Positions 493 to 26,995 of a stretch of DNA of 64,000 nt are shown piece after piece (positions within the stretch are counted from its first letter, which is position 1; the number at the start of each line of letters is the position of its first letter). Origin of the DNA: Escherichia coli (GTDB lineage: Bacteria > Pseudomonadota > Gammaproteobacteria > Enterobacterales > Enterobacteriaceae). Both the position numbers and the translations under genes were made by a program. Location of the stretch: NCBI RefSeq assembly GCF_016026235.1, contig NZ_CP065613.1, one strand, 5' to 3'. The notes under the pieces are model-generated. The model had not been told where the DNA came from. It worked only from the letters and a program-made list of their open reading frames with translations, and made no database searches.

Positions 493-1787
493 CTGAGGAA
501 TCCCCAGAAAACAAGACAGGCATAGTGAGATGTGATCTAATTGATTGTGCTAACAATTTCAAGGAGATCACCACTATGCCTGCACGTTCATTATGCCAAA
601 ATTTCCTTAACAACATACTGGCCCCTTTGCATCTTTACCGTCAAAAATCACTGATTGACGCAACTAATGCTGTAATAAATGGCGCTTCCCTCACACTTAC
701 CAGTATCGGGCGTCATTTAACCGGTACGGCATCAGTTAAAAACAAAATAAAGCGGGTGGATCGACTGTTGGGGAATCGACATTTGCAAAATGAGGTTTCC
801 ACCATTTTTCAGCGAATTACCCAAAAGATTACGCGGGGAATGTCTCGTGTTGTGATACTCATTGACTGGAGTGCTTATCATGCCTCTCGTTTTCAGCTTT
901 TGCGGGCAAGCCTGGCATGTGACGGGCGTTCTTTACCGTTGATGAGTTGTGTCGTTCCATCATCACAGACAGCGAATGCAGATGTACATGAGCGTTTTCT
1001 GGAATCGCTTGCTGAGTGCTTTTCCCCCGGGACTGATGTCATTGTTATTACAGATGCCGGTTTTCAGGGGCGATGGTTCCAACAGCTCCGCTCCCGTGGC
1101 TGGACCTATATTTGCCGGGTACTGGGCAATCATTATTACAATGTTGGTAATGGCTGGGAAAAGGTGTCGGACTCAGGCACAAAAGCATCAACGACAGCAA
1201 TTTATTTAGGTGAAGGCCTGCTGGGTCGAGATAAAAATGCACAACATGAAGGGCATTTTTATCTTTATAAAAGTAAGCCTAAAGGTCGTAGATTTAAACG
1301 CTCGAAGGAAAGAGCAACCAGACCATCGGTGACGGCTAAAGCTCGTACTGCCGGGAAATCACCATGGTTTATTTTCACAAACAGTACTGAGTTCTCGCCA
1401 AAACAGGTAATGAAATTATACAGCCGTAGAATGCAAATTGAGCAAAATTTCAGGGATGAAAAAAATCCTCGCTGGGGATTTGGACTACGGTTTGGTGCCA
1501 GTCATTCATCCGGGCGGGTCACGGTATTGAGTCTGATCGCAACATTAGCCAGTATCATTATGTGGTTAAGCGGTTTCAGTCTGGAAAACAAAGGGATACA
1601 TCATAAATATCAGGCAAATACAGTGAAGCACAGGCGAGTCATCTCGTTATTAAAACTGGCGGAGAATGTGATTCGACATTCTCCACTCATACTAAACACA
1701 CTGTCACTTGACGCAGGGCTGAAAGTTCTACAGCAACGGTATACCAATATGATAATGGTTTACTAAATTTTCTGGGGATCCCTCAGG
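493..1787 (+). mobile_element. IS10-like IS4-family insertion sequence, copy 1 (1295 bp)
   Basis: Imperfect terminal inverted repeats CTGAGGAATCCCCAGAAAAC (left) and CCTGAGGGATCCCCAGAAAA (right, reverse complement); 9-bp target site duplication GGTTTCCCC at 484-492 and 1788-1796; single transposase ORF. Confidence 0.85.
525..1766 (+). CDS. IS4-family (IS10-like) DDE transposase
   Basis: ORF track 413 aa; motifs KRVDRLLGNRHLQNE and FQANTVKHRRV align with IS10 transposase (KRIDRLLGNRHL, FQANTVRNRNV) from memory; GTG start at 525, alternative ATG at 573 (MPARS) gives an IS10-like length of 397 aa. Confidence 0.8.
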   Translation: MRCDLIDCANNFKEITTMPARSLCQNFLNNILAPLHLYRQKSLIDATNAVINGASLTLTSIGRHLTGTASVKNKIKRVDRLLGNRHLQNEVSTIFQRITQKITRGMSRVVILIDWSAYHASRFQLLRASLACDGRSLPLMSCVVPSSQTANADVHERFLESLAECFSPGTDVIVITDAGFQGRWFQQLRSRGWTYICRVLGNHYYNVGNGWEKVSDSGTKASTTAIYLGEGLLGRDKNAQHEGHFYLYKSKPKGRRFKRSKERATRPSVTAKARTAGKSPWFIFTNSTEFSPKQVMKLYSRRMQIEQNFRDEKNPRWGFGLRFGASHSSGRVTVLSLIATLASIIMWLSGFSLENKGIHHKYQANTVKHRRVISLLKLAENVIRHSPLILNTLSLDAGLKVLQQRYTNMIMVY

Positions 1788-1935
1788 GGTTTCCCCCGCC
1801 CTGGTAGCCTTAGTAAGCTGGCCAGCTAATGACTAAGAGCACCACGATGATGAGTAGCTTCATCATGACCCTTTCCTTATTTATGGCCCCTTCCTCGGGA
1901 GGGGCTTTCCCGTTTCAGCGTCCCGCTGAAATCGG
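1788..1935 (+). ncRNA. sibB: SibB-like antitoxin sRNA, 3' portion only; promoter and first ~25 nt (435-492) separated by the IS at 493-1787
   Basis: Sequence 468-492 plus 1797-1935 aligns colinearly with the sibA repeat (133-282); promoter TTGACA 435-440 and CATACT 456-461; terminator hairpin CCCCTTCC-TCGG-GAGGGG ~1888-1925. Confidence 0.5.
1810..1866 (-). CDS. ibsB: Ibs-family small hydrophobic type I toxin (18 aa, MMKLLIIVVLLVISWPAY)
   Basis: Own translation of minus strand; same context as ibsA in the second Sib repeat; ORF intact. Confidence 0.55.
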   Translation of the reverse strand: MMKLLIIVVLLVISWPAY

Positions 1936-2073
1936 CGGCTTACCTCCTTTCGCCATGCAAGCAGTCTATCGCTAACGCGTAGATAAAATAGTTTCCTGTG
2001 TTATTACTGGATGCGTGCTCGCAAATGTGCCCGTCATTCAGACGATTCCCGACAGTGTTTCATAATTCCTCCA

Positions 2074-2091
2074 TTTTTCTCCCTTATTGGC
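2074..2091 (+). promoter_or_regulatory. Putative BaeR box upstream of mdtA
   Basis: TTTTTCTCCCTTATTGGC resembles the BaeR consensus TTTTTCTCCATDATTGGC (from memory); ~55 bp upstream of the mdtA start. Confidence 0.5.
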
Positions 2092-2144
2092 TGGCTACAC
2101 TAGTATCATTCCGCGAAACGTTTCAGGAAGAGAAACTCTTAACG

Positions 2145-3392
2145 ATGAAAGGCAGTTATAAATCCCGTTGGGTAATCGTAATCGTGGTGGTTATCGCCGC
2201 CATCGCCGCATTCTGGTTCTGGCAAGGCCGCAATGACTCCCAGAGTGCAGCCCCAGGGGCGACGAAACAAGCGCAGCAATCGCCAGCGGGTGGTCGCCGT
2301 GGTATGCGTTCCGGCCCATTAGCCCCGGTTCAGGCGGCGACCGCCGTAGAACAGGCAGTTCCGCGTTACCTCACCGGGCTTGGCACCATTATCGCCGCTA
2401 ATACTGTTACGGTGCGCAGCCGCGTGGACGGTCAACTGATGGCGTTACATTTCCAGGAAGGCCAGCAGGTCAAAGCAGGCGATTTACTGGCAGAAATTGA
2501 CCCCAGCCAGTTCAAAGTTGCATTAGCACAAACCCAGGGCCAACTGGCAAAAGATAAAGCCACGCTTGCTAACGCCCGCCGTGATCTGGCGCGTTATCAG
2601 CAACTGGCAAAAACCAATCTCGTCTCCCGTCAGGAGCTGGATGCCCAACAGGCGCTGGTCAGTGAAACCGAAGGCACCATTAAGGCTGATGAAGCAAGCG
2701 TCGCCAGCGCGCAGTTGCAACTCGACTGGAGCCGCATCACCGCACCAGTCGATGGTCGCGTTGGTCTCAAGCAGGTTGATGTTGGTAACCAAATCTCCAG
2801 TGGTGATACCACCGGAATTGTGGTGATCACCCAGACGCATCCTATCGATTTAGTCTTTACCCTGCCGGAAAGCGATATCGCTACTGTAGTGCAGGCGCAA
2901 AAAGCCGGAAAACCGCTGGTGGTAGAAGCCTGGGATCGCACCAATTCGAAGAAATTAAGTGAAGGCACGCTGTTAAGCCTCGATAACCAAATCGATGCCA
3001 CAACCGGTACGATTAAAGTGAAAGCACGCTTTAATAATCAGGATGATGCGCTGTTTCCCAATCAGTTTGTTAACGCGCGCATGTTAGTCGACACCGAACA
3101 AAACGCCGTAGTGATCCCAACAGCCGCCCTGCAAATGGGCAATGAAGGCCATTTTGTCTGGGTGCTGAATAGCGAAAACAAGGTCAGCAAACATCTGGTG
3201 ACGCCGGGCATTCAGGACAGTCAGAAAGTGGTGATCCGTGCAGGTATTTCTGCGGGCGATCGCGTGGTGACAGACGGCATTGATCGCCTGACCGAAGGGG
3301 CGAAAGTGGAAGTGGTGGAAGCCCAGAGCGCCACCACTCCGGAAGAGAAAGCCACCAGCCGCGAATACGCGAAAAAAGGAGCACGCTCCTGA
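2145..3392 (+). CDS. mdtA: Multidrug efflux RND membrane fusion protein MdtA (415 aa)
   Basis: ORF track 1998-3392; start trimmed to [10 protein letters not shown] (ATG 2145) by recognition of K-12 MdtA; 4-bp overlap with mdtB. Confidence 0.9.
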
Positions 3393-6300
3393 TGCAGGTG
3401 TTACCCCCGAGCAGCACAGGCGGCCCGTCGCGCCTGTTTATTATGCGTCCTGTCGCCACCACGCTGCTGATGGTGGCGATCTTACTCGCCGGGATTATCG
3501 GTTATCGCGCCCTGCCCGTTTCGGCGCTGCCGGAAGTGGACTATCCGACCATTCAGGTGGTCACGCTCTACCCAGGTGCCAGCCCGGATGTCATGACCTC
3601 TGCCGTTACCGCGCCGCTCGAACGCCAGTTCGGGCAGATGTCTGGCCTGAAACAGATGTCGTCGCAAAGTTCCGGCGGTGCGTCAGTTATCACTTTGCAG
3701 TTCCAGCTAACATTACCGCTCGATGTCGCCGAGCAGGAAGTGCAGGCCGCGATTAACGCTGCGACCAACTTGTTGCCGAGCGATCTGCCTAACCCGCCGG
3801 TTTACAGCAAAGTGAACCCGGCAGATCCGCCGATCATGACGCTCGCCGTCACCTCAACCGCCATGCCGATGACGCAAGTGGAAGATATGGTGGAAACCCG
3901 CGTCGCGCAGAAAATCTCGCAGATTTCCGGCGTCGGCCTGGTGACGCTTTCCGGCGGTCAGCGTCCGGCTGTTCGCGTCAAACTTAACGCTCAGGCGATT
4001 GCCGCCCTCGGCCTGACCAGCGAAACCGTGCGCACCGCCATTACCGGCGCTAACGTTAACTCGGCAAAAGGTAGCCTCGACGGCCCTTCCCGTGCGGTCA
4101 CGCTTTCCGCGAACGACCAGATGCAATCCGCCGAAGAGTATCGCCAGCTAATCATCGCCTACCAGAACGGCGCGCCAATTCGTCTGGGCGATGTCGCAAC
4201 TGTAGAGCAAGGTGCAGAAAACAGCTGGCTCGGCGCGTGGGCGAACAAAGAACAGGCCATTGTGATGAATGTTCAGCGCCAGCCCGGTGCTAACATTATC
4301 TCCACCGCCGACAGCATTCGGCAGATGCAGCCACAGCTCACTGAGAGTCTGCCGAAATCGGTGAAGGTGACAGTGCTTTCCGATCGCACCACCAATATCC
4401 GCGCATCCGTCGATGATACTCAGTTTGAATTGATGATGGCTATCGCGCTGGTAGTCATGATTATCTACCTGTTTTTGCGCAATATTCCGGCGACCATCAT
4501 TCCCGGTGTTGCTGTACCGCTGTCGTTAATCGGCACTTTCGCGGTTATGGTGTTTCTCGATTTTTCAATCAATAACCTGACACTGATGGCGTTAACTATC
4601 GCCACCGGATTCGTGGTCGATGACGCCATCGTGGTGATCGAAAACATTTCCCGCTATATCGAAAAAGGCGAAAAACCGTTGGCGGCGGCGCTCAAGGGCG
4701 CAGGTGAAATCGGCTTTACCATTATCTCGCTGACCTTCTCACTGATTGCGGTGTTGATCCCACTGCTGTTTATGGGCGATATCGTCGGGCGACTGTTCCG
4801 CGAATTTGCTATTACCCTGGCGGTAGCGATTTTGATCTCAGCGGTGGTGTCGCTGACCCTGACACCGATGATGTGCGCGCGGATGCTCAGCCAGGAGTCG
4901 TTGCGTAAACAGAACCGCTTCTCCCGTGCCTCGGAAAAAATGTTCGACAGGATAATCGCCGCCTATGGTCGTGGACTGGCGAAAGTGCTGAATCATCCGT
5001 GGCTGACCTTAAGCGTGGCACTCAGCACGCTGCTGCTTAGCGTGCTGCTGTGGGTGTTCATTCCGAAAGGTTTCTTCCCGGTACAGGACAATGGCATTAT
5101 TCAGGGCACTTTGCAGGCACCGCAATCCAGCTCCTTTGCCAATATGGCCCAGCGACAACGCCAGGTCGCGGACGTGATTTTGCAGGATCCGGCAGTGCAA
5201 AGCCTGACCTCATTTGTTGGCGTTGATGGCACTAACCCGTCGCTGAATAGTGCACGTTTACAAATCAACCTCAAACCGTTGGATGAACGTGATGATCGGG
5301 TGCAAAAAGTCATCGCCCGTCTGCAAACGGCGGTAGATAAAGTGCCGGGCGTCGATCTCTTCCTGCAACCAACGCAGGATCTGACTATTGATACTCAGGT
5401 CAGCCGCACCCAGTACCAGTTTACCTTGCAGGCCACCTCACTGGATGCGCTCAGTACCTGGGTGCCACAGTTGATGGAAAAACTCCAGCAACTGCCACAG
5501 CTTTCTGATGTCTCCAGCGACTGGCAGGACAAAGGGCTGGTGGCGTATGTCAATGTTGATCGCGACAGCGCCAGCCGTCTGGGGATCAGCATGGCGGATG
5601 TCGATAACGCCCTGTACAACGCGTTTGGTCAGCGACTGATTTCCACTATTTATACTCAGGCTAACCAGTATCGCGTGGTGCTGGAGCACAACACCGAAAT
5701 TACCCCGGGCCTCGCGGCGCTGGATACCATTCGCCTGACCAGTAGCGACGGCGGCGTGGTGCAGTTAAGCTCAATTGCCAAAGTTGAACAGCGTTTTGCG
5801 CCGCTTTCCATCAACCATCTGGATCAGTTCCCGGTAACGACCATCTCCTTTAACGTGCCGGATAACTATTCGCTGGGCGATGCGGTGCAGGCGATTATGG
5901 ACACCGAAAAGACGCTGAATCTGCCGGTGGATATCACCACGCAGTTCCAGGGCAGCACCCTCGCCTTCCAGTCGGCGCTGGGCAGCACTGTCTGGCTGAT
6001 TGTCGCGGCGGTGGTGGCGATGTATATCGTGCTCGGCATTCTGTACGAGAGCTTTATTCACCCGATCACCATTCTCTCGACGCTACCCACCGCAGGAGTC
6101 GGCGCACTGCTGGCGTTAATGATTGCCGGTAGCGAACTGGATGTGATTGCGATTATCGGCATTATTTTGCTGATCGGTATCGTGAAGAAGAACGCCATCA
6201 TGATGATCGACTTCGCGCTGGCTGCTGAGCGCGAGCAAGGCATGTCGCCGCGCGATGCCATCTACCAGGCTTGTCTGTTGCGTTTTCGTCCGATCCTGAT

Positions 6301-15088: not shown

Positions 15089-15341
15089 TTACGATGCCGG
15101 GCGTGGGTTGTTGGCGTCCGGCTTTATATCCAAATAACGCTTAGTTATTAATAATTAAGAGTAACCGCCGCCATTAAAATAGTGGGCACTGACGAGCACT
15201 CGTTGTGCTTTCTTTGTTTACCATCCCATACTTATCCTCCTGAACATGTTCATGTGCCAAAATATCTTCTAATACTTTCGTGACGCTATCCGGTTTATGA
15301 CATACACTGATGTAAGATTTTTACTTACAGGCGGGCGTAAA

Positions 15342-15593
15342 ATGGCCAGAACGATGACGGTTGATCTCGGCGATGAGTTGCGTGAATTTATCGAGTCCTT
15401 AATTGAATCCGGCGACTATCGCACCCAAAGCGAAGTGATCCGTGAGTCACTGCGATTACTTCGAGAAAAGCAAGCAGAGTCTCGCCTGCAAGCGTTACGT
15501 GACATGCTCGCAGAAGGGTTGAGTAGTGGTGAAGCTCAGCCGTGGGAAAAGGACGCGTTCTTACGGAAGGTGAAAGCAGGGATAAGGAAATAA
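15342..15593 (+). CDS. ParD-like ribbon-helix-helix antitoxin (83 aa)
   Basis: Start chosen at MARTMTVDLGDELREF; small acidic protein; stop lies 1 bp before the downstream ParE-like ORF; not at this position in K-12 as far as I recall. Confidence 0.6.
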   Translation: MARTMTVDLGDELREFIESLIESGDYRTQSEVIRESLRLLREKQAESRLQALRDMLAEGLSSGEAQPWEKDAFLRKVKAGIRK

Positions 15594-15594
15594 T

Positions 15595-15891
15595 GTGCGT
15601 ATTATTAAACTCATGCCAAAAGCCAATGAGGATTTAGAAGGCATCTGGTATTACAGCTATCACCATTTCGGCGAACCACAAGCCGACAGATATGTGGAAC
15701 ATCTTTCAGACGTTCTCCAGATTCTGAGTAACAATAATATAGGTACGCCCAGACCTGAATTAGGCGAAGGTATTTTTGTTCTTCCTTTTGAACGCCACGT
15801 CATTTATTTCCTGCAATCACCAGGGGAAATTATCGTCATTCGTATCCTTAACCAAAACCAGAACGCCACCAGACATTTACACTGGAGCTAA
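15595..15891 (+). CDS. ParE/RelE-superfamily toxin (98 aa)
   Basis: ORF track; GTG start adjacent to the antitoxin stop (alternative ATG at 15613); typical ParE length and pairing. Confidence 0.6.
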   Translation: MRIIKLMPKANEDLEGIWYYSYHHFGEPQADRYVEHLSDVLQILSNNNIGTPRPELGEGIFVLPFERHVIYFLQSPGEIIVIRILNQNQNATRHLHWS

Positions 15892-15993: not shown

Positions 15994-17355
15994 ATGTTTA
16001 AACCGGAACTCCTTTCCCCGGCGGGAACGCTGAAAAATATGCGTTACGCTTTCGCTTATGGCGCAGATGCTGTTTATGCGGGCCAGCCGCGTTATTCCCT
16101 GCGTGTGCGCAACAACGAATTCAACCACGAAAATCTTCAGCTCGGCATCAATGAAGCCCACGCGCTGGGGAAAAAGTTTTATGTCGTGGTCAACATTGCA
16201 CCGCACAACGCCAAGCTGAAAACCTTTATCCGTGACCTGAAACCGGTGGTGGAAATGGGGCCGGATGCGCTGATTATGTCCGATCCAGGGCTGATTATGC
16301 TGGTGCGTGAGCACTTCCCTGAAATGCCGATCCACCTTTCGGTGCAGGCTAACGCCGTGAACTGGGCGACGGTGAAATTCTGGCAGCAAATGGGCCTGAC
16401 CCGCGTGATCCTCTCTCGCGAGCTGTCGCTGGAAGAGATTGAAGAGATCCGCAATCAGGTGCCGGATATGGAGATCGAGATCTTCGTTCACGGCGCGCTG
16501 TGCATGGCCTACTCCGGTCGCTGCCTGCTCTCTGGCTATATCAACAAGCGCGACCCGAACCAGGGCACCTGCACCAACGCCTGCCGCTGGGAGTACAACG
16601 TCCAGGAAGGGAAAGAAGATGATGTTGGCAACATCGTACACAAGTACGAGCCGATTCCGGTGCAAAATGTTGAGCCGACGCTGGGTATCGGCGCACCAAC
16701 CGACAAAGTGTTTATGATCGAAGAGGCCCAGCGTCCGGGCGAGTATATGACCGCGTTTGAAGATGAGCACGGCACTTACATCATGAACTCGAAAGATCTG
16801 CGCGCCATCGCCCATGTAGAACGCCTGACCAAAATGGGCGTGCATTCGCTGAAAATCGAAGGTCGTACCAAATCTTTCTACTATTGTGCACGCACCGCAC
16901 AGGTTTACCGCAAAGCTATCGATGACGCCGCTGCGGGAAAACCGTTCGATACCAGCCTGCTGGAAACTCTGGAAGGTCTGGCGCATCGTGGCTATACCGA
17001 AGGTTTCCTGCGTCGTCATACTCACGACGATTATCAGAACTACGAATACGGTTATTCAGTTTCTGACCGCCAGCAGTTTGTTGGTGAGTTTACCGGTGAG
17101 CGCAAGGGGGACCTCGCGGCGGTAGCGGTGAAAAATAAATTCTCCGTTGGCGACAGCCTTGAGCTGATGACGCCGCAAGGCAACATTAATTTTACCCTTG
17201 AGCACATGGAAAACGCCAAAGGCGAAGCTATGCCGATAGCACCAGGCGATGGTTATACTGTGTGGCTCCCGGTCCCGCAGGATCTTGAGCTCAATTACGC
17301 GCTGCTGATGCGTAATTTCTCCGGGGAAACCACGCGTAATCCCCACGGTAAGTGA
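15994..17355 (+). CDS. yegQ: U32-family peptidase YegQ / RlhA (453 aa)
   Basis: ORF track; sequence recognised as K-12 YegQ. Confidence 0.88.
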   Translation: MFKPELLSPAGTLKNMRYAFAYGADAVYAGQPRYSLRVRNNEFNHENLQLGINEAHALGKKFYVVVNIAPHNAKLKTFIRDLKPVVEMGPDALIMSDPGLIMLVREHFPEMPIHLSVQANAVNWATVKFWQQMGLTRVILSRELSLEEIEEIRNQVPDMEIEIFVHGALCMAYSGRCLLSGYINKRDPNQGTCTNACRWEYNVQEGKEDDVGNIVHKYEPIPVQNVEPTLGIGAPTDKVFMIEEAQRPGEYMTAFEDEHGTYIMNSKDLRAIAHVERLTKMGVHSLKIEGRTKSFYYCARTAQVYRKAIDDAAAGKPFDTSLLETLEGLAHRGYTEGFLRRHTHDDYQNYEYGYSVSDRQQFVGEFTGERKGDLAAVAVKNKFSVGDSLELMTPQGNINFTLEHMENAKGEAMPIAPGDGYTVWLPVPQDLELNYALLMRNFSGETTRNPHGK

Positions 17356-17439
17356 TTAATTTCGATTATTTTTCCCGGATGGAAAATTCTTAGAAACCGA
17401 TCACATACAGCTGCATTTATTAAGGTTATCATCCGTTTC

Positions 17440-17526
17440 GCTGAAAAACATAACCCATAAAATGCTAGCTGTACCAGGAACCACCTCCTTAGCCTGTGTA
17501 ATCTCCCTTACACGGGCTTATTTTTT
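17440..17526 (+). ncRNA. cyaR: CyaR (RyeE) Hfq-dependent sRNA
   Basis: 87-nt match to remembered CyaR sequence GCUGAAAAACAUAACCCAUAAAAUGCUAGCUGUACCAGGAACCACCUCCUUAGCCUGUGUAAUCUCCCUUACACGGGCUUAUUUUUU, ending in a terminator hairpin and T-run. Confidence 0.85.
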
Positions 17527-17684
17527 ATGCATAAGCCCTATCCCTGGTCACCGTCTTCCATTGACCACATCGATAGAATCTCCCTTCATAGCACGATGCC
17601 TTTCACGTAACGGCATCGTGCTCGCACAGGTTCCGGCTAAGCACAACCAGAACGCGCATGTTTGACGCTTACCAAAAAATATTC

Positions 17685-18002
17685 TCACTCTCCACATTTG
17701 AATGTCAGACGAGCGACGCCATGTAATCCTGCACCTTCTGTCTTCAGGTCAACTATCTGCATTTTTTTGCCCTGAGTAACACAGAAATGGGCTGCATCAT
17801 TTTTTACTATATTTTCTGCACCAGATATTCTGCCCCTGGCTAAAGAAGCTTCGGCTTCGGTGTAGTATTGGTTATCGAGTTTACGCTGAATATTACTTTT
17901 ATATGCAAGACCAAATTTACCGATACTTGTCTCATCATTATGCACAGCACAACCAGACATAATAAAAATACTAATTAATGATATAGCAGCTATCTTTTTC
18001 AT
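17685..18002 (-). CDS. yegR: YegR small lipoprotein (105 aa)
   Basis: ORF track 17685-18062; start trimmed to MKKIAAISLISIFIMSGC (signal peptide with lipobox). Confidence 0.75.
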   Translation of the reverse strand: MKKIAAISLISIFIMSGCAVHNDETSIGKFGLAYKSNIQRKLDNQYYTEAEASLARGRISGAENIVKNDAAHFCVTQGKKMQIVDLKTEGAGLHGVARLTFKCGE

Positions 18003-18407
18003 CTCACCTTCCCCCATTAAATACCAACGACACTCTCTAGTGTTTAAATATAATAATGGCATGATTATTATAATTGAATAGGATTATAATAAATGTTCTG
18101 TACAACATTTCCTACATAAGTAGGAATTACGGACATTGAGGCCCTTCAGGGTAACTCCATGGGGGCTTTAATATATTATATTGAAGATGCCACTGTTTAG
18201 TTGAATATTAGGTATATGCTCTTTTTTGAAATTTATCGGTGGCAGCCGTTAGTATTCGCTGTCCCCATTGCAAGCTCCTGGTGGTAACCACTGAATCCTC
18301 CATACTTGAACTGACTTTTTATCCTCCGACTTTCATCCTGTTCTGACTCCACCTTTTGTTTTCTGCTCTACACTATCTACAGACCAATCATAAAGGCACA
18401 TACGATC

Positions 18408-19307
18408 ATGGCAGAATTTCCCGCCAGCTTACTGATTCTTAATGGCAAAAGTACTGACAATCTACCCTTGCGCGAAGCAATTATGCTGTTGCGTGAGGAA
18501 GGAATGACGATCCATGTGCGGGTCACCTGGGAGAAAGGCGATGCCGCACGATATGTAGAGGAGGCCCGGAAGTTGGGCGTCGCAACGGTGATTGCCGGTG
18601 GTGGCGATGGCACCATTAATGAAGTTTCTACGGCGTTGATTCAGTGTGAGGGGGATGACATACCCGCGCTGGGAATTTTGCCATTAGGAACCGCCAATGA
18701 TTTTGCCACCAGTGTAGGGATTCCTGAGGCACTGGATAAGGCGCTGAAACTGGCAATTGCCGGTAATGCCATTGCGATAGATATGGCGCAGGTCAACAAA
18801 CAAACCTGTTTTATTAATATGGCGACAGGCGGGTTTGGGACGCGTATTACCACAGAAACGCCGGAAAAATTAAAAGCCGCGCTGGGTGGCGTCTCATACA
18901 TCATTCATGGCTTAATGCGTATGGATACTCTGCAACCGGACCGTTGTGAAATCCGCGGTGAAAACTTTCACTGGCAAGGTGACGCCCTGGTCATTGGTAT
19001 TGGTAACGGGCGTCAGGCCGGTGGCGGTCAACAATTGTGCCCGAACGCGTTAATTAACGATGGCTTGCTGCAACTGCGCATTTTTACCGGCGATGAAATT
19101 CTTCCGGCTCTCGTATCAACCTTAAAATCTGACGAAGATAACCCGAATATTATCGAAGGCGCTTCGTCGTGGTTTGATATACAAGCCCCACACGAAATCA
19201 CTTTTAATCTTGATGGCGAACCGTTGAGTGGACAAAACTTTCATATTGAAATACTTCCGGCGGCGTTGCGTTGTCGATTACCACCAGATTGTCCATTATT
19301 GCGTTAA
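18408..19307 (+). CDS. yegS: Lipid kinase YegS (299 aa)
   Basis: ORF track; diacylglycerol-kinase-like GGDGT motif; sequence recognised. Confidence 0.88.
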
Positions 19308-19388: not shown

Positions 19389-20162
19389 CTACACCGTAAT
19401 TAATTTCACCCGTGTCTTCTGCAATGCCAGTTTATCCACCTCAGACACAGCATCATCGGTAATAATAATGTCAATTTTTTCGATTGGCAGTACCTGATTA
19501 AAACCGCGACGGTTAAATTTCGATGAATCGAGAACGGCAATCACTTTATTAGCGGCTGTGACCATCGCACCGCTAACGGAATAACCCTCATTAAAGGTCG
19601 TAATACCATTAACCGCATCAATACCATCAGCACCGACAAACATTAAATCGGCATTAATATCCTGCAGGGAACGTTCAGCAATAGATCCATGCATAGATCG
19701 CGTTTTATGGCGGACCGTGCCACCGCAGACGACCAGAGTAATGTCTTTATTTTCGGAAAGGGCAAACGCAGCCGGGAGACTGTTGGTAATCACCGTGATA
19801 TTTTTGGCGGTCATTAATCCTTCGGCGATAAGCATTGTGGTACTTCCGCTGTCGAGAATAACGGTCATCCCTTCATGGATCATTTTGACTGCCGCCTGCG
19901 CTATTCTGTTTTTCGGCGCGCTGGCGAGCTGAAATCGCTCTTTAAACCCGACTTCCTGGGTCTCGGTTTCACTATTACCGGACATTATTTTCGCCGCACC
20001 GCCATGAAAGCGCGTAACCACGCCTTTTTGTTCGAGAAAGCGCAAATCGGCACGGATTGTCGCTTCCGAGGCAGCAAATACTCCCGCCAGATCCTGAACA
20101 AGCACGGTTCCCTGTTCATTCACTAATTGGATGATCTTATTCCTTCGCTCGAATGAATTCAT
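19389..20162 (-). CDS. gatR: DeoR-family galactitol operon repressor GatR, uninterrupted
   Basis: ORF track 19389-20168; start probably MNSFERRNK; HTH N-terminus and sugar-binding C-terminus; intact here, whereas I recall K-12 gatR is IS-interrupted. Confidence 0.85.
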   Translation of the reverse strand: MNSFERRNKIIQLVNEQGTVLVQDLAGVFAASEATIRADLRFLEQKGVVTRFHGGAAKIMSGNSETETQEVGFKERFQLASAPKNRIAQAAVKMIHEGMTVILDSGSTTMLIAEGLMTAKNITVITNSLPAAFALSENKDITLVVCGGTVRHKTRSMHGSIAERSLQDINADLMFVGADGIDAVNGITTFNEGYSVSGAMVTAANKVIAVLDSSKFNRRGFNQVLPIEKIDIIITDDAVSEVDKLALQKTRVKLITV

Positions 20163-20267
20163 CGTCATTTACCCATATTCAATTGTGGCTAGTGTAAACG
20201 AAGGGGGACCATTGGTGAATGATCTGTTTTGCACAATACCGGGCCAGCATCACGCTGGCCCGCGGTT

Positions 20268-21340: not shown

Positions 21341-22635
21341 CTGAGGAATCCCCAGAAAACAAGACAGGCATAGTGAGATGTGATCTAATTGATTGTGCTA
21401 ACAATTTCAAGGAGATCACCACTATGCCTGCACGTTCATTATGCCAAAATTTCCTTAACAATATACTGGCCCCTTTGCATCTTTACCGTCAAAAATCACT
21501 GATTGACGCAACTAATGCTGTAATAAATGGCGCTTCCCTCACACTTACCAGTATCGGGCGTCATTTAACCGGTACGGCATCAGTTAAAAACAAAATAAAG
21601 CGGGTGGATCGACTGTTGGGGAATCGACATTTGCAAAATGAGGTTTCCACCATTTTTCAGCGAATTACCCAAAAGATTACGCGGGGAATGTCTCGTGTTG
21701 TGATACTCATTGACTGGAGTGCTTATCATGCCTCTCGTTTTCAGCTTTTGCGGGCAAGCCTGGCATGTGACGGGCGTTCTTTACCGTTGATGAGTTGTGT
21801 CGTTCCATCATCACAGACAGCGAATGCAGATGTACATGAGCGTTTTCTGGAATCGCTTGCTGAGTGCTTTTCCCCCGGGACTGATGTCATTGTTATTACA
21901 GATGCCGGTTTTCAGGGGCGATGGTTCCAACAGCTCCGCTCCCGTGGCTGGACCTATATTTGCCGGGTACTGGGCAATCATTATTACAATGTTGGTAATG
22001 GCTGGGAAAAGGTGTCGGACTCAGGCACAAAAGCATCAACGACAGCAATTTATTTAGGTGAAGGCCTGCTGGGTCGAGATAAAAATGCACAACATGAAGG
22101 GCATTTTTATCTTTATAAAAGTAAGCCTAAAGGTCGTAGATTTAAACGCTCGAAGGAAAGAGCAACCAGACCATCGGTGACGGCTAAAGCTCGTACTGCC
22201 GGGAAATCACCATGGTTTATTTTCACAAACAGTACTGAGTTCTCGCCAAAACAGGTAATGAAATTATACAGCCGTAGAATGCAAATTGAGCAAAATTTCA
22301 GGGATGAAAAAAATCCTCGCTGGGGATTTGGACTACGGTTTGGTGCCAGTCATTCATCCGGGCGGGTCACGGTATTGAGTCTGATCGCAACATTAGCCAG
22401 TATCATTATGTGGTTAAGCGGTTTCAGCCTGGAAAACAAAGGGATACATCATAAATATCAGGCAAATACAGTGAAGCACAGGCGAGTCATCTCGTTATTA
22501 AAACTGGCGGAGAATGTGATTCGACATTCTCCACTCATACTAAACACACTGTCACTTGACGCAGGGCTGAAAGTTCTACAGCAACGGTATACCAATATGA
22601 TAATGGTTTACTAAATTTTCTGGGGATCCCTCAGG
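21341..22635 (+). mobile_element. IS10-like IS4-family insertion sequence, copy 2 (1295 bp)
   Basis: Same TIRs as copy 1; 9-bp target site duplication GATAAACTC at 21332-21340 and 22636-22644; sits in the gatC-gatD junction. Confidence 0.85.
21373..22614 (+). CDS. IS4-family (IS10-like) DDE transposase
   Basis: Protein identical to copy 1 in the ORF track; at least two synonymous DNA differences from copy 1. Confidence 0.8.
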   Translation: MRCDLIDCANNFKEITTMPARSLCQNFLNNILAPLHLYRQKSLIDATNAVINGASLTLTSIGRHLTGTASVKNKIKRVDRLLGNRHLQNEVSTIFQRITQKITRGMSRVVILIDWSAYHASRFQLLRASLACDGRSLPLMSCVVPSSQTANADVHERFLESLAECFSPGTDVIVITDAGFQGRWFQQLRSRGWTYICRVLGNHYYNVGNGWEKVSDSGTKASTTAIYLGEGLLGRDKNAQHEGHFYLYKSKPKGRRFKRSKERATRPSVTAKARTAGKSPWFIFTNSTEFSPKQVMKLYSRRMQIEQNFRDEKNPRWGFGLRFGASHSSGRVTVLSLIATLASIIMWLSGFSLENKGIHHKYQANTVKHRRVISLLKLAENVIRHSPLILNTLSLDAGLKVLQQRYTNMIMVY

Positions 22636-24333: not shown

Positions 24334-24786
24334 TTATTCGTCTGAATCTAAAACATACTTTGTGAAGTATTCCTTTAACTGGGTTTCAGGAAGAGTGATT
24401 AGTGTCTCGACGATATCGGGCTGTTGTAACTTGCCAAATAAACAGCGTAAAAGTTTCAATTGCTGCTGCGGATTTTCCACAATCAACGCAATAACCAACG
24501 ATACCTCCACGTCGTTATCATCATCCGCTTGCTGAAAATGAACTTTATTTGTTGGCCTTAACAGATAAATGGCTGACGACTTAGCATGAATCGCCTCACA
24601 ATGCGGTATTGCAATGGCGTGCTGCTCAAGCATTATCCCGGTAGGGAATTCTGCTTCTCTGGCAATTAATGCCTGTGGCCAGGTATCATGAACCACACCT
24701 TTGGCGAGCATCTCATTACCGATATGGGTTAAAACTTCGCTACGATCGACAAAAGAAATTCCGCTACGAACAAACAGGTTAGTCAT
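24334..24786 (-). CDS. gatA: PTS galactitol-specific EIIA GatA (150 aa)
   Basis: ORF track; operon context. Confidence 0.88.
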   Translation of the reverse strand: MTNLFVRSGISFVDRSEVLTHIGNEMLAKGVVHDTWPQALIAREAEFPTGIMLEQHAIAIPHCEAIHAKSSAIYLLRPTNKVHFQQADDDNDVEVSLVIALIVENPQQQLKLLRCLFGKLQQPDIVETLITLPETQLKEYFTKYVLDSDE

Positions 24787-24795
24787 ATACCGTCC

Positions 24796-26995
<2,200 letters not shown>

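Follow-up and report, generated by a model that had tools for sequence, protein, structure and literature searches.

Among the closest described systems are phages that use the 3′ ends of tRNA, tmRNA and sRNA genes as integration targets, such as phage 186 at tRNA-Ile and the phage target ryeB in Salmonella, where the hairpin-containing 3′ end of the RNA gene serves as the attachment core. The phage carries a copy of this 3′ end, so that integration rebuilds the gene (PMC3603311; PMC3448106). The sRNA gene cyaR, under its other name ryeE, is a known phage target (PMC3603311), and a table of the mobile elements of laboratory strains gives ‘cyaR RNA’ as the insertion site of P2-type elements, namely Wphi2 in strain W, P2*B in strain B and ‘ogr-D'’ in K-12, with the site empty in Crooks (PMC3032704, Table 2). 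For E. coli C, the site of P2 has been located at position 2165238 of MG1655 (PMC3448106, Table 1). Since cyaR is listed in published tables, its use as a P2 insertion site was already known. The coordinate 2165238 belongs to an older numbering that differs by about 2 kb from the one now in use, and so it falls at the 3′ end of cyaR. The site of P2 in E. coli C is the one called locI in the older literature, and the preference of P2 for locI was reportedly described originally by Barreiro and Haggard-Ljungquist in 1992. The cyaR target differs from the tRNA-type targets in that it is the Rho-independent terminator of an Hfq-binding sRNA and not a tRNA arm.

The locus described here lies in a stretch of E. 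coli DNA of 64,000 nucleotides, which is referred to as the window. The features on the left side of the locus are the following:

15994-17355, + strand: yegQ (trhP), conserved and located upstream of cyaR; an open reading frame annotated in a 99.9% identical genome and in K-12
17438-17524, + strand: cyaR (ryeE) sRNA gene, Rfam RF00112; the end at 17524 was transferred from K-12, in which the gene is annotated with 87 nt
17500-17526, no strand assigned: P2 attB core AATCTCCCTTACACGGGCTTATTTTTT, identical in 27 of 27 positions to the annotated P2 attP core, and the point at which prophages split the locus

The identity of cyaR was established by a full-length covariance-model match, in which RF00112 (CyaR_RyeE) covers 17438-17523 on the + strand and model positions 1-85 of 85, scoring 100.7 bits where the gathering score is 47. 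The terminator of cyaR, located by a terminator scan and by sequence, comprises a hairpin (17491-17518) and a T-run that extends to 17526. Between the end of the T-run and the yegR stop codon, which begins at 17685, there are exactly 158 bp (17527-17684), as the original prediction had counted. The reverse complement of the P2 attP core (24356-24382) matches 17500-17526 in 27 of 27 positions, and in 28 of 28 when the next base is included; within the cyaR terminator, the core runs from the last 2 bases of the 5′ stem, through the loop and the 3′ stem, to the end of the T-run. In genomes with large inserts, the match to the window breaks exactly at 17500-17526. The ogr, D and tail genes adjoin the cyaR side of the core in strain elppa10, and cox, C and int precede the yegR side of the core in strain ECE228, which together is the layout expected of a P2-like prophage integrated at the cyaR core. 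The stretch can be assigned to the P2 attB sites by the identity of its core, by its position at the chromosomal place of the K-12 remnant and by the natural prophages in which the core is duplicated. Because of the full identity to the annotated attP core, 17500-17526 is taken as the preferred P2 attachment site. The claim that the 3′ end of cyaR is a P2-type attachment site is therefore upheld by the alignment with the attP core that had been proposed as a check, by the prophages split at the core and by the literature tables.

These observations support the view that 17500-17526 is an intact and unoccupied P2 attachment site, presumably a competent one, judging from the identity of its core and its use in other strains. 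In E. coli C, P2 apparently makes use of this same site. The primary site of P2 (locI) has the same 27-bp core, the same position between yegQ/cyaR and yegR, and prophages with the core duplicated at both junctions, and no difference in kind was found between the two. According to established P2 biology, P2 integrase and IHF would exchange strands between the core in the window and the attP core, and as the two cores are identical, integration would rebuild the cyaR terminator and the sRNA gene would survive. In the reading preferred here, to which a probability of about 0.87 can be given, the window carries an intact unoccupied P2 site, the K-12 state derives from a degraded prophage, and the right flank of the site is a remnant of an older P2-family element.

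In K-12 MG1655 (NC_000913.3), trhP (yegQ) is followed in turn by cyaR, ogrK, yegZ (a pseudogene) and yegR, and a ‘cryptic prophage PR-X’ is annotated at 2167183-2167811. The P2-like remnant with ogrK and yegZ that had been named for K-12 is thus confirmed by the annotation of PR-X between cyaR and yegR and by its 96.7% identity to P2. PR-X is colinear with P2 from 24373 to 23742, through the interior of the attP core, the arm, the terminator, ogr and D; yegZ is a fragment of tail gene D, of which the last ~210 bp are kept. Pairwise alignment of the two loci revealed a single block of 629-630 bp that is present only in K-12, directly after the cyaR terminator, and the flanks of the block are nearly identical. 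The spacing of cyaR and yegR is 788 bp in MG1655 (cyaR end at 3201 and yegR start at 3990 of the K-12 locus) versus 158 bp in the window; an equal spacing of 158 bp in K-12, which had been named as the result that would speak against the prediction, was not seen. The window has no ogrK and yegZ between cyaR and yegR, and a tblastx search of 17527-18321 for P2 genes returned only weak matches to P2 (E values of at least 0.025), among which the arm region gave the best one.

On the right side of PR-X, the D fragment is fused to the last 18 of the 27 core bases, with a 3-bp microhomology (TAC) at the joint. PR-X is a P2-like prophage that lacks about 31 kb, the deletion running into the right-hand core. 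A P2-like prophage thus integrated at the cyaR core of K-12 and later lost the part from the middle of D to position 10 of the right-hand core, and this deletion left the 629-bp PR-X with the arm, ogrK and the D fragment. The excision of P2 needs both Int and Cox, and neither int nor cox is found in PR-X. Being without int and having a truncated right core, PR-X is unable to leave by precise excision. The remnant presumably blocks the use of the cyaR site by P2 in K-12.

The occupancy of the site was determined with three junction-specific queries against 5,426 complete E. coli genomes, with the following result:

Uninterrupted cyaR-core-flank arrangement, as in the window: 4,207 genomes (77.5%)
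P2-type junction of int, core and flank: 820 genomes (15.1%)
K-12-type junction of D fragment and core: 357 genomes (6.6%)

Other states at cyaR, such as an IS1 insertion, were found in about 40 genomes. The empty state is the common state of E. coli, and K-12 is an atypical reference. Since the window-like state is that of the majority, it is K-12 that is unusual, and the finding in the window is an ordinary one. The occupancy bears also on the question of how the window came to be empty. About 15% of the genomes are occupied at present, for which reason turnover at the cyaR site is held to be frequent, and the lineage of the window might have been cured by precise Int/Cox excision of a prophage, with attB restored and no scar left, as precise excision is established to leave no trace. 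A remnant of the K-12 type could not have left in this way, for the reasons given above, and for an intact prophage the sequence does not separate a cured site from one that was never occupied, so that the matter concerns the history of the site and not its present condition. Curing of the window lineage is conceivable but on the whole somewhat unlikely.

The original prediction that the window retains an empty attB holds as far as the insert is absent and the core intact. However, the 158 bp next to the core are not a naive flank, as they begin with a decayed P2-type arm. The spacer is composed of the following parts:

17527-17587, no strand assigned: decayed P2-type arm (IHF site and Int arm site) beside the core, from local alignment to P2
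17590-17622, - strand: hairpin with a perfect 11-bp stem and an 11-nt loop in the yegR 3′ region, from sequence and RNA folding
17623-17684, no strand assigned: what is left of the spacer before the yegR stop codon, common to the locus labelled E. coli SCPM-O-B-8794 (L039)

The stretch 17539-17587 aligns with the IHF/P-arm region of P2 with 38 matches in 50 columns and a local score of 22, which is about 9.6 standard deviations over the mean of 2,000 shuffles (8.9 ± 1.4, maximum 15). An exact 15-mer, CATTGACCACATCGA, at 17559-17573 corresponds to P2 24293-24307, within the annotated Int P-arm site. In P2, the arm repeats TGTGGTCA and TGTGGACG are located on this arm, and TGTGGACA occurs twice on the other arm, inside int. 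The window retains the arm-type repeat TGTGGTCA intact on the - strand (17562-17569), at a distance of about 36 bp from the core. The second repeat has degenerated (TGGAAGACG in the window versus TGTGTGGACG), and the IHF region lacks about 16 bp. An intact junction arm, with a complete IHF site and two Int arm-type repeats, is therefore not found in the window, and on its sequence the window arm is best regarded as a relic, not as a working arm. As a weaker extension of this reading, the retained Int arm-type repeat near the core could influence the use of the site by P2.

More complete forms of the arm occur elsewhere. Strain 2022H048 keeps 12 more bases of the IHF region than the window, and a full-length IHF-like stretch is present in L039, from a divergent genome labelled E. 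coli SCPM-O-B-8794, and in E. albertii. Together with the window, these loci form a graded series that leads from an intact arm to a relic. PR-X has the same core in the same orientation and shows the occupied and later degraded state of the site; it is absent from the window. Whereas PR-X keeps an intact arm and ogr, the relic in the window is far older and more decayed.

The - strand of 17575-17690 is predicted to fold with -42.7 kcal/mol (z = -3.45), and by positional comparison the hairpin at 17590-17622 occupies the place of the ogr terminator in P2. It was rejected as a terminator in its own right, as it has no U-tract and is not called by the terminator scan. The sequence that follows is shared with L039, which has 86% identity to the window over 17622-17664. 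Inside the spacer, the 10-mer AATCTCCCTT at 17577-17586 equals the first 10 bases of the core and could be a nested junction or the remains of a phage terminator stem; K-12 and B2 strains have AATCCTCCTT at this position, and the decayed distal core described below starts with AATCCTCC. The idea that the 10-mer marks two nested relics was rejected because of the AATCCTCCTT variant of K-12 and B2, and because the stretch aligns equally well with the stem of the P2 ogr terminator. A further difference between strains was observed at the other end of the spacer. In E. coli O6:K2:H1 C 691-04A (L007, approximately 985-1155), about 170 bp of extra AT-rich DNA stand right after the yegR stop; this DNA is present in B2-type strains and at the end of L039 and absent from the window and K-12, and its lack is probably due to a deletion in the lineage of the window and K-12.

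The arm opens a segment of about 795 bp (17527-18320), which starts exactly at the end of the core, includes yegR and has a GC content of 0.33-0.38 versus ~0.51 in the flanks. Its remaining features and its right neighbour are the following:

17685-18002, - strand: yegR, AT-rich gene of a predicted lipoprotein of 105 aa, from open reading frame and annotation
18109-18126, no strand assigned: perfect 18-bp inverted repeat TTCCTACATAAGTAGGAA, EvgA-box-like, upstream of yegR, from sequence
18294-18320, no strand assigned: candidate decayed second core copy AATCCTCCATACTTGAACTGACTTTTT, 18 of 27 positions, where the yegR island ends on the right
18321-19307, + strand: ancestral right flank, with the yegS upstream region and then yegS (18408-19307), from outgroup comparison

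The sequence AATCCTCCATACTTGAACTGACTTTTT is the best match to the core within 17527-18420. When the core was scanned over both strands of the 64-kb window (~128,000 positions), only 2 positions reached 18 matches and none had 19-26. Moreover, 18294-18320 is located exactly where homology to the outgroup flank resumes. The outgroup arrangement was obtained from a cyaR-pattern scan of species-representative genomes, which gave at least 120 loci from a set without E. fergusonii and several other Escherichia species. According to flank projection, the gap between the core and the yegS flank is about zero, give or take a few tens of bp, in dozens of species among the matches listed, including members of Enterobacter, Klebsiella, Raoultella, Kosakonia, Cedecea and Atlantibacter. 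The yegS flank follows the cyaR core directly in the loci L065, L127, L115 and L046 and in many other genera; in Escherichia strain E69, E. whittamii, Citrobacter koseri and ‘Escherichia sp. ESNIH1’ the junction is direct, with homology starting at window 18316-18327, and E69 has an exact 27/27 core at this cyaR-yegS junction. Because the junction is direct in dozens of species, the adjacency of cyaR and yegS is ancestral, and 17527-18320 is an insertion. The decayed distal core copy and the direct junction in relatives are together what is expected of site-specific integration. A direct cyaR-yegS junction was found in 0 of the 5,426 complete E. coli genomes, with one near-match that has a shortened island. 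This genome, E. coli FDAARGOS_1077 (NZ_CP068155.1, 4039918-4040621), is the only complete one with cyaR about 500 bp from the yegS flank, which suggests a partial deletion of the yegR island.

In the proposed history, an older P2-family element would have entered the same core ahead of the diversification of E. coli, and its decay would have left only a stub of the arm, yegR and the distal core. Selection on the cyaR terminator would have kept the proximal core intact, whereas the distal copy drifted. We consider it probable, with somewhat less confidence than in the reading as a whole, that the P2 site is the surviving junction of an ancient P2-family element, of which a remnant of ~795 bp became fixed and yegR was recruited into the EvgA regulon. 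This layered nature of the ‘empty’ site is the addition made here, and it was not found stated in the searchable literature. Against the older remnant stands the fact that only the ogr-side arm is recognisable, and that neither the int side nor a phage-borne yegR was found. In 18063-18293, DNA alignment and tblastx against P2 gave no significant trace of the int-side arm or of int; the alignment score was 13, and shuffles gave 9.2 ± 1.35 with a maximum of 15.5.

The arrangement of core, insert and core copy beside the yegS flank is found independently in other lineages, namely E. albertii, Pluralibacter and Mangrovibacter among the matches listed. In E. albertii NBRC 107761 (L013, 4957-8327), an insert of 3,371 bp has the same arm at its start and is closed by a 25/27 core copy, located 2 bp from the yegS flank. 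The insert contains cdtA, cdtB and cdtC and has 86% identity to the cdt-V region beside cosR of P2-like phages (fiAA91-ss), and from its sequence it can be regarded as a stripped-down P2-like prophage with its cargo kept. The likeness of the yegR island to this cdtABC island and to the cdt-V P2-like phages consists in the same cyaR core, the arm and the closing core copy, with the phage genes gone and, in E. albertii, a cargo operon kept; the differences are the size of the E. albertii island (3.4 kb) and the clear phage ancestry of its cargo, whereas no phage counterpart was found for yegR. The inserts of Pluralibacter (909 bp) and Mangrovibacter (3,031 bp) both end in core copies of 18/27. 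In Citrobacter youngae and an Enterobacter strain, fragments of D, ogr or int lie beside cyaR cores, and the P2-type arm follows these cores. The recurrent inserts and phage fragments at cyaR cores therefore indicate that the cyaR terminator is a docking point of the P2 family across Enterobacteriaceae.

Two further loci of the same scan are recorded here as separate observations. In Salmonella enterica subsp. diarizonae (L103, ~778-3610), an insert of 2.8 kb is located between the cyaR core and the yegS flank and begins with the arm-like ATTGACCACAT; no clear second core copy was found in this insert, the best match being 15/27 and far from the flank. A locus labelled ‘MAG: Collinsella sp.’ (L099) carries an E. 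coli-like yegQ-cyaR region followed by a P2 prophage with 100% (Ogr) and 98% (D) identity to P2, and this contig is almost certainly mis-binned.

The gene yegR has its stop codon at 17685-17687 and its annotated start at 18002, and its product has a signal peptide with an MSGC lipobox. No significant match of YegR was obtained in the local Pfam copy; precomputed matches assign PF27694 YegR. Nearly all homologues of YegR belong to E. coli or Shigella. When 50,697 phage records were searched by tblastn, yegR was found in no true phage genome. Two records matched, a prophage-derived ‘partial genome’ and a junction clone, and since both contain host flank they are not evidence of phage origin; a strong PHROG match (phrog_21109) was likewise not counted, probably having the same host-flank cause. 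Distant homologues of YegR occur in an IS-rich island of an Enterobacter strain and in plain chromosome on a metagenome contig, and no P2 link was found beside either of the two. Upstream of the gene, the inverted repeat TTCCTACATAAGTAGGAA resembles the EvgA box consensus. Binding of EvgA to the yegR promoter is given in a review (PMC8147483). The horizontally acquired yegR thus seems to be wired into the acid-response regulon.

The yegR data also bear on the alternative that the segment arrived in another way, for instance by illegitimate recombination or with an unrelated element, with the arm as a later P2 scar and the 18/27 core match a coincidence. Such a course would agree with the lack of detectable int-side homology, with the absence of a phage-borne yegR from the phage records and with YegR homologues that elsewhere have no P2 link, and the core-like 10-mer AATCTCCCTT could then mark an internal junction. 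However, the reading AATCCTCCTT of K-12 and B2 at that position, and the alignment of the stretch with the P2 terminator stem, weigh against an internal junction. The segment has its left edge at the end of the core and its right edge at a core-like 27-mer of a quality that occurs at 2 of ~128,000 positions, and independent lineages show the same design, so that entry by another route seems rather improbable.

The direction of transfer could also be reversed, in that a P2 ancestor took up the cyaR flank by faulty excision, the spacer being the source of the arm and not its relic. Faulty excision is an established route of capture, and similarity as such has no direction. Nevertheless, the ancestral cyaR-yegS arrangement lacks the whole segment in which the arm-like sequence is located, and TGTGGTCA belongs to a family of repeats with TGTGGACA and TGTGGACG that is present also on the other arm of P2, inside int, which points to a phage origin. 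Both facts make a transfer from host to phage very unlikely, and the same arm stands after the cyaR cores of Citrobacter and Enterobacter that have D, ogr or int fragments beside them. Least credible of all is that the spacer is ordinary ancestral host DNA, resembling a P2 arm by chance next to a pristine attB: the spacer is short, the likeness covers only ~50 bp, and a core alone is established to be enough for the attB function of tyrosine integrases, but the alignment score far exceeds that of the shuffles, the exact 15-mer lies in the Int arm site and is colinear with the core, the outgroups carry a different and conserved flank directly after the core and not the same 50 bp, and other lineages have intermediate and more complete arms. 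The reading of the spacer as the relic of an older P2-family element is therefore retained.

Several observations were made in the surroundings of the site. Between yegP and yegQ, the window has a ParD/ParE-type toxin-antitoxin pair (15297-15593 and 15595-15891, + strand; Pfam ParD_antitoxin 7e-19 and ParE_toxin 3e-13), and K-12 has only ~146 bp between these two genes. An open reading frame of 413 aa for a DDE transposase (21373-22614, + strand; Pfam DDE_Tnp_1, 2e-20) is located between gatD and gatC, and it looks like an IS specific to the strain of the window, because the 99.9% identical strain 2012EL-2448 is without ~1.3 kb at this place. The gene gatR is intact at 19389-20168 (- strand), and the K-12 copy is split by IS3E; gatZ is an intact open reading frame of 420 aa (24796-26058, - strand) and is annotated as frameshifted in the near-identical 2012EL-2448.

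Summarizing, the site as originally predicted is a phage attachment site of the textbook kind, found in the empty condition that is usual for it, and little is at stake in that finding alone. The strain should accept P2-like phages at the cyaR site, including the toxin-carrying cdt-V phages. For annotation, it is of use that K-12 is an atypical reference, whose remnant is shared by 6.6% of complete genomes. The locus is moreover a compact example of how one sRNA terminator can be a reusable docking point across Enterobacteriaceae, at which one phage visit after another would have deposited debris in layers, together with the orphan gene yegR, now under host regulation. This suggests that yegR is better treated as acquired cargo than as a core gene.
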